A DNA stretch of 64,000 nucleotides from an archaeon (GTDB taxonomy: Archaea; Nanobdellota; Nanobdellia; Woesearchaeales; GW2011-AR15), in assembly GCA_043826135.1 (NCBI GenBank), contig JBDRQT010000005.1:70255-134254 (forward strand), given 5' to 3'. The notes beneath the pieces are model-generated. The model was not told the DNA's origin, made no database searches, and saw only the letters and a list, made by a program, of their open reading frames with translations. The translations under genes were made by a program, and so were the position numbers. The stretch's first letter is position 1, and each line of letters starts with the position of its first letter. Of the stretch, positions 6,037 through 9,000 are shown piece after piece.

Positions 6037-9000
6037 ATGGTTGTGGGAAATAAATCACAGGCAACTCTTTATGTAATCATAGGTCTAACTTTAGTATTGG
6101 TTATTGGTTTCTTTCTTTCCCTAAATGCGCAGCAGAGATCGCAGGAGATTGCATCTGTTGCAGATTCCAGATCAGCTTTGGATGCTGAAAGGTTCAGCCT
6201 CGATTATTATATTGAAGGTTGTGTCCGCCAAACAGTCATCGATGCTGAGATTAAGTATGGCTTGCATAGGATTTGGGCAGCTCCGGAGATTGAAGCATAC
6301 ATTGAGAATAACCTTGGCAATTGCCTTGATGATTTCAGGTATTTCAAAGAAAGAGGATACCTTGTAAATAACGGAAATCTGGATGCGAAAGTAGATATCT
6401 CAAGGGAAGCTGTTGCTGTTACGATTGATCTTCCTGTCTATCTGAAGAAAGGAGAAATGGAAATCACCTATGACAGTAAGGTATACAGGCTTCCGTTGAC
6501 ATCTCTCGAAAGGCTGAACTTAAACGGTGAGACAAGGATTGTGTCATCTGACGGCACATTGATTCTGGAAATACCAGAGGGCACTGTTGTGACAGTTAAA
6601 GGCCAGAAGGTTGACCAGGTCGGAGTGCAATTATTGGACAGGCATTTCAATGCAATGCCAAACGATGTTGTCGCGGGAATGCTTGCATTTAACGGTATAC
6701 CTCATAAAGCAGAGTTTTCAAAACCAGTGAAAGTCACAAAATATTACCAGGAAAAAGATATTCCAATTTATGTCAGGGAGGAGGAATTAAGACTTGGCAC
6801 CTATGATTCTGATGTCGGCATATGGGTAGGTCTTCCAACAGAAGTTGATGCAGCAAATAACAAGATAACAACATATATTACACACTTCTCGCAGATGGCG
6901 ACTGTGAAGGATTGCGGAACAGAAGGCGAACCGGCTGTAATCACAAATACAATTGTCAGACAAGAATGTACTGGCTGCGAGGAGAAGTGGATTAAGGATT
7001 TGACATCAGAAATCAAATATTCACTGCCTTCACCGAAAGATTATTCCATAGACAAAACACAGAAATTGGGATTTGTACCTGAGTGTTTTGGTGAAGCGCC
7101 TGTTATTTCGCCTGATACAGGAATAACAAAAGAAGATACAGATACTCTGAAAAAAATTATTGCAATTGATGAAGCAGATTTTGATCATTGCTTTGGATTC
7201 TGTAGTGATACATCTAATAAAGACAAAAAAGACCCTAAATGCAACTGTGATTTATTCTATTATAAAGATTATTTTAGGCAAAAAGGTTTGCAAGACAAAG
7301 GCGGATTGCCTGAAGGCGGGACTGATTCGCAAAAACAAATAATATTCACTCTTGAAGACGGTAAATTTCAGGGTTATGATATATATGATGTTGATTTCAA
7401 GGAAAAAGGCGCTGCATGCGTTGCAGCATTAGAAAAAGATTTTGTGGTTGATTCTGTGGGCAATAATATCAACGTGGATACAACAGGAGTCTTGACTGAA
7501 GATAATGATAAAGCGGCGATTGCTATCAGTGTTGATTATTGCTCTGATAAAGATACATGCCAGATTGTTAAGCCTATTTTTATCAAACAGGAACCCAAAT
7601 TAAGGTTTGGATTTCAGGTTATCAATAGCCCGAGTGAAGATTCACCAGATACCTGTATCTCCGGTGGGGCAAAGGTTGAAATCGCTGGTGTCGGCGCACT
7701 AAATGCAGTTTATGGTTGTTCTGGAAGCGAAAGCGGTAAAATTGATTTTGTCAGGGGAGTATGCATGAAATGCGACGGGCAAATATGGCAGAAACAGGAT
7801 ATGAAAGAATGTTTCCCTGAAGGCAAGTGTGTCGGAGCCCTCATGGGTGTCGTAAGATGGAACGATAAAAATTGTGAAGAGTGCATGAGTTCAGGAGAAT
7901 GGAAGAAATTGGAAACACCTGAAAAATGCGTTTCATCTTGCGAAGAACCACAAGATTCAGTAGCATTGAATCCAACAAAAGCAATAATTGACATTACCGG
8001 CAGACCTGGTGATCCGCCTGAAAATGAAGAGAATAATATTGACTGGAAGAAGGTAGCGGGCTGGGCTGCAATTACAGTTGGCGTTGTAGCTATAGGAGTT
8101 GGGATTGCTTTAGCACTACCAGTGGTTTTGGCAGCGACTGGCCTAATGGCAGCAGGTGGTCTTGCATTTTTACCAGCACTTGCAATTGCAGGATATGGTA
8201 TTTCAAGCATAGCTATTCCAGGGTTAATTATTGGTGGGGGCATTATAACTGGCACTGCAGGAGGGTTTATATTAGCAAATTCTCAAGATGTAACTGACCA
8301 AAACGTACAACTCGCATCGTCTCCTCAGCAGGATATACAGCCTGATGCATCACAGGTAAATAGCCCTGCGCCAGGTGCTGCTTCAGATTCAAGATGTTTA
8401 TCAGGTTCAATTACTCAACCAGATATACCACCTGAACAAACTCTTACTGATGGCGCCAAAGATTGCAATGAAGCAGGCAATGTGAAAATATACACTCTTC
8501 TAACAGCTTCATGGGCAGAAACTGAAGATTGCAAAGGCAAAGGCTGCGAAGCAGGAAAATGTAAGACAGAAGCGACTGCTGAACCTGTGAAATGTGGGAA
8601 AGAAAATGAGCTCATCTGCAATCCAGGAGAGACATGCGATCCAACCACAAAAGAATGCAAGAAACCTGACACTGGATCTACTTCAAGTACTAGCTCCGCA
8701 CCGACTGGGTCTCTTCCGACAGTACCGCCTTCTACCCCACCACCAGCAGCACCAGTTGCAGCAGCACCATCACAACTTGGAGGTGCTTCTGCTTGCTCGC
8801 CAGCATGCTCTACAGACCAGGACTGCGTTGACGGAACATGCGTCGACAAGCCAAAGACATGCATTGAAGGCAATCCCACTTCACCATGCAAAGACATCAA
8901 TGATGCTTCTGTCCAAGGCAAACAATTCACAGTGCCAGGATCAATAAACACGTTAGATATGGATTTCTGTGACACATTCGGCTCATACTCAGGCGAAGAT

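Follow-up and report, generated by a model that had tools for sequence, protein, structure and literature searches.

A charge-free, Gly/Ala-rich hydrophobic block between the two conserved halves of a giant woesearchaeal surface protein

An uncultured Woesearchaeota (DPANN) archaeon encodes giant 1, a cysteine-rich surface protein anchored in the membrane, in which the junction between the two conserved halves is occupied by an uncharged block of 73 residues that is present and real and whose hydrophobicity lies within the range of the transmembrane (TM) helices of its own genome, i.e. is of TM grade. We favour, with moderate confidence, the reading that the block crosses the membrane twice as a helical hairpin whose two ends face outwards, so that the junction is tethered to the membrane of the cell itself; such a hairpin would be a recent gain, probably derived from an ancestral spacer. 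This reading is preferred because the two halves are cysteine-rich and conserved, the flanks of the block are acidic, and the C-half diverges no faster than those of the relatives. The block is a feature of a single species in an uncharacterised family and by itself opens no long-standing question; the carrier family, with its multiple copies and pilin-like N-terminus, is more important than the block.

The carrier protein and its family

The gene of giant 1 lies in a stretch of 64,000 nucleotides (the window, to which all positions refer unless stated otherwise) of a metagenome-assembled genome (MAG) of 69 contigs. It belongs to a multi-copy family characterised by a pilin-like N-terminal anchor and a common N-domain of about 300 aa. 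The gene, its conserved parts and its relevant neighbours are as follows.

6037..10758, plus strand: giant 1 gene, 1573 aa (stop included), from the open reading frame list and translation; the same protein is encoded on an independent Logan contig
6052..6135, plus strand: N-terminal pilin-like (class III-type) signal/anchor, GNK-SQATLYVIIGLTLVLVIGFF, aa 6-33, from the Kyte-Doolittle (KD) segment and the family N-terminus HMM
6136..8013, plus strand: conserved N-half ectodomain, aa 34-659, 23 Cys, ending in ITG[KRN]; BLASTP to orthologs covers aa 1 to ~659 (alignment A2)
8854..10755, plus strand: conserved C-half, aa 940-1573, 18 Cys, with beta-rich, TIM-barrel-like and alpha/beta C-terminal modules (alignment A1)
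10805..14872, plus strand: giant 2, the tandem paralog, 1355 aa, without the block; the real start is ATG 10805
15292..15825, minus strand: DsbB-family disulfide oxidoreductase, downstream of the giants (PF02600, E 1.2e-12)

The N-terminal anchor that an earlier note on this DNA had ascribed to giant 1 is thus located at aa 6-33. The N-terminus matches the family N-terminus HMM with 36 bits (E 6e-13) and has the features of a class III signal peptide, namely a basic n-region, a [KR][GAS]-Q cleavage-type motif and a hydrophobic helix of about 20 aa. About 50 family members share [KR][SGA]Q followed by a hydrophobic stretch at their N-termini, and a Peptidase_A24 gene in the same genome (PF01478 match, 45 bits, G000:C7:3051-3380) encodes a putative prepilin peptidase. 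The ITG[KRN] motif that closes the N-half is conserved and reads ITGR in giant 1 (nt 7993-8004). In the C-half, alignment A1 contains 11 invariant Cys columns, all of which are kept in giant 1, and the identity to the relatives (33.6%) is no lower than that of the relatives among themselves; by this measure the C-half of giant 1 is not evolving faster than theirs. Its AF2 model (pLDDT 74.6) gave weak Foldseek matches to TIM-barrel glycosidases.

Known families and folds provided little further guidance. Pfam and NCBIfam searches with both giants, the block alone and both halves returned no match except noise (YiaAB, E 4.8), profile searches of the PDB, run from alignments of the C-half and of the N-domain, nothing significant, and a word index of 5.8e9 proteins, with the whole of giant 1 as query, only giant 1 itself. 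Searches of genome contigs and metagenome contigs for related loci found none. A PGF-CTERM/archaeosortase sorting signal had no NCBIfam match, and the 'PGL' within the block is followed by no basic tail and is not C-terminal.

Composition, hydrophobicity and flanks of the block

8014..8058, plus strand: acidic N-flank of the block, PPENEENNIDWKKVA (direct reading)
8059..8277, plus strand: uncharged Gly/Ala/Ile/Leu block, 73 aa, aa 675-747 (direct reading, KD values and Hessa-scale sums)
8278..8853, plus strand: species-specific stalk after the block, composed of an acidic/polar spacer, Cys modules and a Pro/Ser/Thr linker, without counterpart in orthologs; 13 Cys; PST run at nt 8671-8814

Both segments that the earlier note had described in this region were recovered: the hydrophobic Gly/Ala-rich block of about 75 aa at 8050-8280 with the extent given above, and the Pro/Ser/Thr linker at about 8680-8790 as SSTSSAPTGSLPTVPPSTPPPAAPVAAAP (aa 883-911, nt 8683-8769). 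The block is composed mainly of small and aliphatic residues (G16 A16 I12 L9 V6 T4 P3), with neither a charged residue nor a Cys, and the complete run free of D, E, K and R extends over 78 aa (aa 673-750, nt 8053-8286). Charged residues make up 24.6% of giant 1 outside the block, so that only about 2e-6 uncharged runs of 73 aa are expected per protein.

Between aa 672 and 747 the KD mean over 19 aa never falls below 1.6; the 78-aa run has a mean of 1.67 and peaks of 2.6. Hessa-scale values, calibrated against TM segments and soluble proteins of the same genome, gave 19-mer sums between -0.55 and +2.5 in several registers of the block. For comparison, the polytopic TM segments of this genome have a median of +1.39 (interquartile range -0.2 to +2.7), and in its soluble proteins the 19-mers of highest hydrophobicity have a 5th percentile of +5.2. 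Hydrophobicity is unevenly distributed: the first 20-25 residues reach a Hessa-scale sum of -0.55 (aa 676-694) and KD values of 2.3-2.6, and aa 694-716 and 709-747 have sums of +1.7 to +2.5. Neither GxxxG motifs (3 observed vs 3.2 in shuffles) nor small-xxx-small motifs (13 vs 14.8) are enriched in the block, i.e. there is no glycine-zipper signal beyond composition, and neither tandem or internal repeats nor duplicated DNA were found in it.

The flanks are net acidic on both sides. Two lysines (WKK) are located on the N-side; the 38 residues after the block include six acidic ones and no K/R, the first K/R being at aa 786. There are 23 Cys ahead of the block and 31 behind it.

A hypervariable junction in the relatives

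The block sits where the conserved N-half meets the conserved C-half, a hypervariable site that in relatives holds a short low-complexity spacer of G(n), (GT)n, Gly/Ala/Thr or PST runs. The tandem paralog lacks the block, as the earlier note had pointed out: the N-terminal anchor is the only hydrophobic anchor of giant 2, and the soluble G/A/T-rich stretch noted at the equivalent place is an uncharged run of 39 aa with a mean KD of 0.85, below TM grade. The block is likewise absent from the syntenic orthologs of five same-genus species and from 40 further long family members, and searches against 20 family genomes, 1.84e9 representative proteins and the organism's own genome (blastn-short, tblastx) returned only the block itself. 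Since it is kept in no relative, selection on the block cannot be shown. No homolog in 20 relatives was found either for the C-terminal G/A block of a 1372-aa paralog.

In six fused relatives (G001 x2, G002, G004, G005, G003_1405) and in giant 2, the two halves are joined without a TM segment, and the fused, block-free state is therefore the common one. A split junction occurs only in G003, where an 821-aa gene is followed directly past its stop by a 1004-aa gene for the C-half that has its own ribosome-binding site and hydrophobic Sec signal peptide; the 821-aa protein has no C-terminal anchor. Because of this split, the junction can be regarded as a real fission/fusion hot spot, and because orthologs and giant 2 fuse the halves without a TM segment and the C-half of G003 carries a Sec signal peptide, the C-half is taken to be extracytoplasmic. 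The suggestion that the block might be conserved in orthologs or mark a gene-fusion boundary was thus not borne out, the block being absent from all of them and the one split N-half ending without an anchor.

Topology of the block, alternative readings and known systems

The favoured two-pass hairpin would be composed of two arms and a turn.

8053..8157, plus strand: proposed hairpin arm a, aa 673-707 (most hydrophobic 19-mer aa 676-694); Hessa-scale sum -0.55 to ~+1, in the top quartile of the genome's TM segments; AF2 helix aa 670-707
8158..8175, plus strand: proposed turn GLAFLP, aa 708-713; helix break in the AF2 single-sequence model, low confidence
8176..8277, plus strand: proposed hairpin arm b, aa 714-747, marginally hydrophobic; Hessa-scale sums +2.0 to +5; AF2 helix aa 714-760

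We infer two passes, insertion into the cell's own membrane and origin from a spacer as follows. The block would be a lineage-specific gain, probably a short uncharged Gly/Ala/Thr spacer following the 'ITG' motif that expanded and drifted towards hydrophobicity. During Sec-dependent export, the first arm (~aa 673-707) would act as a stop-transfer segment and the second (~aa 714-747) would re-start translocation, the end state being a helical hairpin with its ends outside and the tight uncharged turn GLAFLP at the cytoplasmic face. Giant 1 would then be held at two points in its own membrane, with the N-half forming an extracellular loop of 640 aa and the C-half standing on a new stalk of acidic spacer, Cys modules and Pro/Ser/Thr linker. 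The AF2 single-sequence model, of low confidence (pLDDT 50-79, pTM 0.25), consists of two long helices with the boundaries listed above, and the sums of arm b may be compared with the 37% of the genome's TM segments that exceed +2 on the Hessa scale. By the positive-inside rule, acidic residues on both sides place both flanks outside, and this indirect evidence suggests that both flanking halves are on the outer side; the 31 Cys after the block, the retention of 11/11 invariant Cys columns of the C-half and the DsbB gene downstream favour the same arrangement. A precedent exists in the same genome, where a 1153-aa surface protein (C5:35230-38691) contains a canonical mid-protein TM-KKK-TM hairpin. 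Several features speak against the hairpin: the proposed cytoplasmic turn, unlike that of the 1153-aa protein, lacks positive charge, Gly and Pro being present and no K/R occurring anywhere in the block; each arm is about 34 aa long, which is long for a TM helix, and has a proline kink; aa 700-747 are marginally hydrophobic and Gly/Ile/Thr-rich and would also fit beta structure; and the block could be a tolerated accident.

The alternative that comes closest, although we consider it unlikely, is that the block is a hydrophobic low-complexity spacer outside the cell, an over-expanded junction spacer that is either self-associating and beta-prone or a near-neutral accident. The low-complexity runs at the junction of the relatives (G(n), (GT)n and the 39-aa G/A/T run of giant 2), the uniqueness and lack of conservation of the block and the marginal hydrophobicity of its second half are all consistent with a spacer, as are two other surface proteins of the genome with uncharged G/A-rich blocks below or at the edge of TM grade (Hessa sums +1.4, +5). 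However, the first 20-25 residues match the top quartile of the genome's real TM helices, and the translocon would hardly pass them; an exposed apolar stretch of 73 aa would tend to aggregate; and the Pro+Gly content of the block (26%) is judged too low for a disordered linker of the elastin-like type known from elastomeric proteins.

An odd number of passes, one or three, which would place the C-half (826 aa) in the cytoplasm, mislocalised and hence inactivated or re-purposed, is quite improbable. The sequence alone would allow three passes, as 73 residues fit three helices of 19 aa and local minima of the Hessa sum are found at aa 676, ~694-700 and 729; a single stop-transfer is conceivable too, in that only the first segment is strongly hydrophobic, and the WKK lysines sit on the N-side. 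What argues against a cytoplasmic C-half is that it keeps an open frame of 826 aa, all invariant cysteines and an identity to the relatives as high as theirs mutually, that six acidic and zero basic residues in the 38 positions after the block are the opposite of a cytoplasmic flank, and that a cytoplasmic location would leave a Pro/Ser/Thr stalk and 31 Cys without an obvious purpose.

Also highly unlikely is a device aimed at another cell, in which the block would be a Gly/Ala-rich, fusion-peptide-like or pore-forming hairpin inserting into a host or partner membrane on contact. In composition, and in composition only, the block is similar to the Gly/Ala-rich fusion peptides of class I viral fusion proteins and to the hydrophobic hairpins found in pore-forming toxins. 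The block is located in a surface giant, and its bearer is a DPANN archaeon, a group for which the molecular basis of host contact and of cytoplasmic bridges is unknown (PMC11329633). However, being absent from the orthologs and all other family members, the block cannot belong to the core of a conserved contact machinery; its length is three to four times that of a fusion peptide, it shows no glycine-zipper enrichment beyond composition, and no heptad/coiled-coil region or cleavage site was seen next to it; furthermore, the first arm is expected to enter the membrane of the producer itself in the course of export. More doubtful still is the specific version in which the hairpin is latched between disulfide-rich modules, is driven into the partner-cell membrane and represents a newly evolved part of the DPANN-host contact or cytoplasmic-bridge machinery; if true, gain and loss of hairpins in giant surface proteins would be how lineages retune contact.

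No more probable than insertion into a partner membrane is a fusion scar, i.e. the C-terminal anchor of an upstream gene joined to what had been the signal peptide or pilin-like anchor of the gene downstream of it. The split in G003, whose second gene has its own hydrophobic signal peptide, and the resemblance of 'WKK' plus hydrophobic run to the n- and h-regions of a signal would fit, but six fused relatives and giant 2 carry both halves without a hydrophobic segment, the 821-aa G003 protein ends without an anchor, and neither a relic start codon nor a ribosome-binding site was seen in the DNA. A relic of a second pilin-like N-terminus in the block was rejected, the scores against the family N-terminal anchor HMM being negative. 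Of the three readings offered in the earlier note, the hairpin with both halves outside is accordingly the best supported (TM-grade hydrophobicity, acidic flanks, 23 + 31 Cys, export of the C-half), whereas a host-directed, fusion-peptide-like segment and a fusion of two ancestral genes as origin find no support, the latter in view of the six block-free fused relatives and the missing HMM resemblance.

An assembly or sequencing artefact, for which the metagenomic origin of the 69 contigs could be adduced, is extremely improbable, as neither a frameshift nor a misassembly was found at the block by frame, codon signature or second assembly: the frame runs through it into flanks that both match orthologs in the same frame, GC by codon position (0.62/0.58/0.21) has the signature of a genuine coding frame while stops abound in the other plus-strand frames, the DNA contains no repeat or duplication, and an independently assembled Logan contig of 46,842 nt from run SRR26275510 shows 100% identity over 10.7 kb (window 3037-13758) and hence agrees base for base at 8.0-8.3 kb.

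The block shows rapid architectural change in the surface giants of DPANN archaea: within one genus, three states of a single junction are known, in that the halves are bridged by a soluble spacer, divided between two genes whose products are exported, or, in giant 1, joined through a membrane-grade hairpin. Should the hairpin be real, it alters the geometry of a 1573-aa surface protein, turning the N-half into a loop and keeping the C-half near the membrane on its new stalk, and it would be a natural case in which a low-complexity linker gave rise de novo to a TM hairpin.

Among known systems, archaeal proteins with class III signal peptides (EppA/PibD/FlaK type, e.g. the Epd pilins of Methanococcus maripaludis) share with giant 1 and about 50 family members the basic stretch, the [KR]-[S/G/A]-Q motif and the hydrophobic helix of about 20 aa, and a Peptidase_A24 protein is encoded in the genome; they are small pilins, however, whereas members of the giant 1 family have 600-2000 aa with large globular domains, and with a second, mid-protein anchor giant 1 could not be extracted from its membrane. 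Class I fusion peptides and the hairpins of pore-forming colicins, the diphtheria toxin T domain and type III translocators are apolar and Gly/Ala-rich as well, and in the latter three an apolar stretch of ~40-80 aa is likewise embedded in a secreted or surface protein; the block differs in having no sequence or profile similarity to them, no conservation and no known shielding bundle of amphipathic helices, and in being far longer than fusion peptides. With the Gly-rich or Pro/Ser/Thr-rich linkers of archaeal surface proteins it shares the position at the junction of two conserved halves and the rapid species-specific turnover, but these linkers are hydrophilic or neutral in the relatives (mean KD -0.4 to +0.9 vs 1.67). 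The 1153-aa protein of the same genome (G000:C5:35230-38691) reads 'ES...GIMQI' past its hairpin and has a lytic transglycosylase-like look there, with no match in Pfam; no claim is made. For helical-hairpin anchors with both termini outside, of which this protein is the in-genome example and the two-TM hairpin of E. coli leader peptidase the textbook analogue of a hairpin anchor, the differences are that the block of giant 1 is charge-free, without a positive cytoplasmic loop, Gly/Ala-rich, built of proline-kinked arms of ~34 aa and conserved in no relative, while the likeness consists in two neighbouring apolar segments in the middle of a protein with large cysteine-rich or exported domains on either side.

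The giants and the hydrophobic block

The source genome (G000; 69 contigs, 1.88 Mb, about 95% complete) encodes in the window, which occupies positions 70255-134254 of contig C5, two tandem, cysteine-rich surface proteins, giant 1 and giant 2, which are adjoined by the genes for PCNA and an archaeal RNase J; these neighbours and the tRNAs with long introns present in the genome identify the organism as an archaeon. Two tRNA matches at window 16932-17063 and 21815-21974 (minus strand), both missed by ARAGORN, have spans of 132 and 160 nt and thus contain long introns. The giants are paralogous at both ends, with 38% identity in aa 1-320 and 32% in aa 918-1573, and the region between is unalignable.

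Features of the giant locus (window coordinates)
4621-5964, minus: ORF of 447 aa, no Pfam match, between RNase J and giant 1
6037-10758, plus: giant 1, ORF of 1573 aa, with an N-terminal anchor at aa 6-33
8059-8277, plus: hydrophobic block, aa 675-747 of giant 1
8683-8769, plus: Pro/Ser/Thr linker, aa 883-911 of giant 1
10805-14872, plus: giant 2, 1355 aa, beginning 46 nt past giant 1
15292-15825, minus: DsbB-family disulfide oxidoreductase (PF02600, E 1.2e-12), after tRNA-Leu, just downstream of the giants

The block is real, statistically non-random, of membrane grade and unique to the species. The uncharged, Gly/Ala-rich peptide quoted in the earlier note from the middle of giant 1 was recovered at aa 675-747 (G16 A16 I12 L9 V6 T4 P3), within a run of 78 aa free of D, E, K and R, and the Kyte-Doolittle (KD) 19-residue mean is at least 1.6 throughout aa 672-747. 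Since charged residues make up 24.6% of giant 1 outside the block, about 2e-6 uncharged runs of its length are expected by chance. The N-terminal anchor and the Pro/Ser/Thr linker described in the same note are likewise present, and giant 2, as stated there, lacks the block: apart from its N-terminal anchor it has just a G/A/T run of 39 aa at the junction (mean KD 0.85). Antisense ORFs within giant 1 (window 7710-8255, 181 aa, and 8415-9140, 241 aa; both minus) are probably spurious open frames opposite Gly/Ala- and Pro/Ser/Thr-rich coding sequence.

Five further species of the genus carry the giant pair in synteny beside RNase J, which in them directly abuts the giant; the 447-aa ORF is therefore an insertion specific to the source genome. 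The window opens with an ORF (3-956, plus) that is the C-terminal end of a larger protein, G000:C5:68100-71210 (1036 aa); this protein carries a signal peptide and, close to a strongly basic C-terminal tail, two transmembrane (TM) segments.

The giants of the five species comprise 1405-2068 aa each, share the conserved parts on either side of the block (N-half and C-half), and contain no hydrophobic segment besides the N-terminal anchor. Homology to giant 1 extends over aa 1 to about 659 and resumes from about aa 880-965 to 1573, and aa 660 to about 880, comprising the block, an acidic spacer, Cys modules and the Pro/Ser/Thr linker, have no counterpart in the orthologs. In the ortholog comparison proposed in the earlier note, the block is absent from all of these syntenic giants. 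The relatives' junction consists of a conserved short motif, [DS]ITG[KNR], followed by low-complexity runs (poly-G, (GT)n, Pro/Ser/Thr), and in giant 1 DITGRPGD lies 18 residues ahead of the block and IITGTAGG at its end. In the form [DS]ITG[KRNM] (window 7993-8004 and equivalent sites in the ortholog loci L020-L024), the motif closes the N-half of both giants and of their orthologs, recurs behind the hairpin of the 1153-aa protein described below, and may have a processing or membrane-proximal role. In G003, one species of the genus, the first giant copy, the ortholog of giant 1, is split exactly at the junction, and a fused 1405-aa paralog adjoins the split pair.

Split genes of G003 (locus L024, G003:C9:37000-56000)
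13796-16261, minus: 821 aa, N-half
10780-13794, minus: 1004 aa, C-half

The 1004-aa gene is preceded by a ribosome-binding site, GGAGGTG, right past the stop of the 821-aa gene, and encodes its own Sec-type signal peptide, MKSRTLKSYIFVLIFTIFLVSVNA.

Membrane grade and topology

Hydrophobicity was graded as a plain 19-residue sum on the 'biological' scale (Hessa 2005), calibrated within the source genome. Segments of candidate polytopic proteins had a median of +1.39 (interquartile -0.2 to +2.7, 37% above +2), and the most hydrophobic 19-mers of proteins without any KD segment had a 5th percentile of +5.2. The block reaches its lowest sum, -0.55, at aa 676-694; windows from aa 673 to 700 give 0 to +2.5, and the sum dips again, to between +2.0 and +2.5, at aa 709, 714 and 729. 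By this calibration, its first 20-25 residues are as apolar as the organism's better TM helices; the remainder is marginal, yet inside the TM range. For aa 640-790, AlphaFold2 run on the single sequence predicts two long helices, 670-707 and 714-760, separated by a GLAFLP break, at low confidence (pLDDT 50-79, pTM 0.25).

The N-half is placed outside because it contains 23 Cys and follows an N-in anchor. For the C-half, too, several observations point to the outside: it is continuous with the N-half, with no TM segment between, in six relatives and giant 2; the separate C-half gene of G003 carries an export signal; giant 1 has 31 Cys past the block and keeps every one of the 11 Cys columns that are invariant in the C-half alignment, and the DsbB gene lies just downstream; the C-half of giant 1 has diverged no further from the relatives (33.6% mean identity) than they have from one another (33.5-35.7%); and the block is flanked on either side by net acidic sequence, the earliest K/R past it being aa 786, which by the positive-inside rule places both flanks outside. 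With both halves outside, the chain must cross the membrane an even number of times. The simplest solution is one hairpin made of two long helices kinked by proline, with arms set by the GG...P break; four passes would also be even, but helices of just 14-19 residues would be needed.

The most likely reading, held with moderate confidence, is that the block is a helical hairpin of recent gain whose two ends face outward, a second anchor of giant 1 whose arms would span the producer's own membrane while both halves stay outside. The earlier note had listed this arrangement among its options; of the two to three passes it estimated, two is the number favoured here and three, an odd count, is disfavoured. 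A hydrophobic spacer lying outside the membrane is an unlikely reading of a segment with such sums. An odd-pass topology is very improbable given the placement of both halves outside. The host-directed membrane insertion also suggested before is very improbable too.

Origin of the block

As a relic of the family N-terminal anchor, the block was rejected by negative HMM scores. Neither an internal repeat nor a glycine-zipper excess was found in it, and no donor was found elsewhere in the source genome; the usual state among relatives is that of fused halves without the block. We therefore favour an in-place origin, in which the uncharged G/A/T spacer with its 'ITG' motif would have expanded while Thr/Ser/Gly gave way to Ile/Leu/Val/Ala. 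The gene-fusion origin raised in the earlier note is unsupported and very improbable, both because the relatives are mostly fused without a block and because the block does not resemble the anchor; a scar of fission followed by refusion likewise finds no support and is improbable.

An artefact is hardly credible: GC at the block's codon positions (0.62/0.58/0.21) has a real reading-frame pattern, its codons match the usage of the remaining giant 1, the other plus-strand frames are closed, the flanking sequences show in-frame homology to the orthologs, no tandem repeat or second DNA copy was found in the genome, and two assemblies agree. The protein cluster of giant 1 consists of two records, one from NCBI (149,966-nt contig) and one from Logan (46,842-nt contig, run SRR26275510, 1573-aa product), and the Logan contig is identical at every base to window 3037-13758, which covers the 8.0-8.3 kb for which an assembly check had been advised.

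Comparison with other surface proteins and known folds

Giant 1 belongs to a family defined by an N-domain of about 300 aa, with 12 members in the source genome; of 41 related genomes, 33 encode between 1 and 13. The N-termini consist of [KR]-[S/G/A]-Q and a hydrophobic helix (consensus mKKsQisiFvIiGivIvi), and a Peptidase_A24 gene is present, so the giants are pilin-like (class III signal) surface proteins. A second hydrophobic segment occurs in two of the 12 members, giant 1 and a 1372-aa paralog, and in none of 40 further long members from relatives. No homolog of the block was detectable in 20 family genomes or among 1.84 billion representative proteins, and in the databases searched no relative exceeded about 46% identity. 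A co-directional cluster of genes for small pilin-like and large surface proteins occupies the minus strand of C5 at 35-58 kb, upstream of the window.

Surface proteins with extra inter-module segments
G000:C5:35230-38691, minus: 1153 aa, signal peptide, Cys-rich domain, hairpin at aa 277-325, second domain
G000:C5:43253-46198, minus: 981 aa, 50-aa uncharged G/A/V block ahead of a Cys tail
G000:C5:48087-52205, minus: 1372 aa, family member, 70-aa uncharged G/A block flanked by two copies of one Cys module

The 1153-aa protein has a textbook TM-KKK-TM hairpin, SIWVVIAFAVFALLILFLG-KKK-LVHIAIFSIIMMGGIYVASI, between its Cys-rich and second domains, followed by SKITGRV; the domain past the hairpin has an 'ES...GIMQI' look and no Pfam match. 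The blocks of the 1372-aa and 981-aa proteins (Hessa sums +1.4 and +5) are less hydrophobic than that of giant 1, and the former has no homolog in 20 relatives. Extra hydrophobic or G/A-rich inter-module segments are thus a recurring trait of these surface proteins, varied in hydrophobicity, and the block of giant 1 is the membrane-grade extreme of the range, a fresh variant of a familiar feature type in an uncharacterised family of DPANN surface proteins.

Neither the N-domain nor the giants have a sequence match in Pfam, NCBIfam or PDB. The last approximately 280 aa of giant 1 have, judged by eye alone, the motif order of metallophosphoesterases with substituted ligands. The C-half (window 8854-10755), modelled with AlphaFold2 from an 8-sequence alignment (pLDDT 74.6), is predicted to fold into three modules: one rich in beta strands, one resembling a (beta/alpha) barrel, and an alpha/beta module at the C-terminus. 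The predicted middle module weakly resembles TIM-barrel glycosidases, for example GH5/GH26 mannanases and GH2, in Foldseek, with E from 1.6e-3 and probabilities reaching 1.0.
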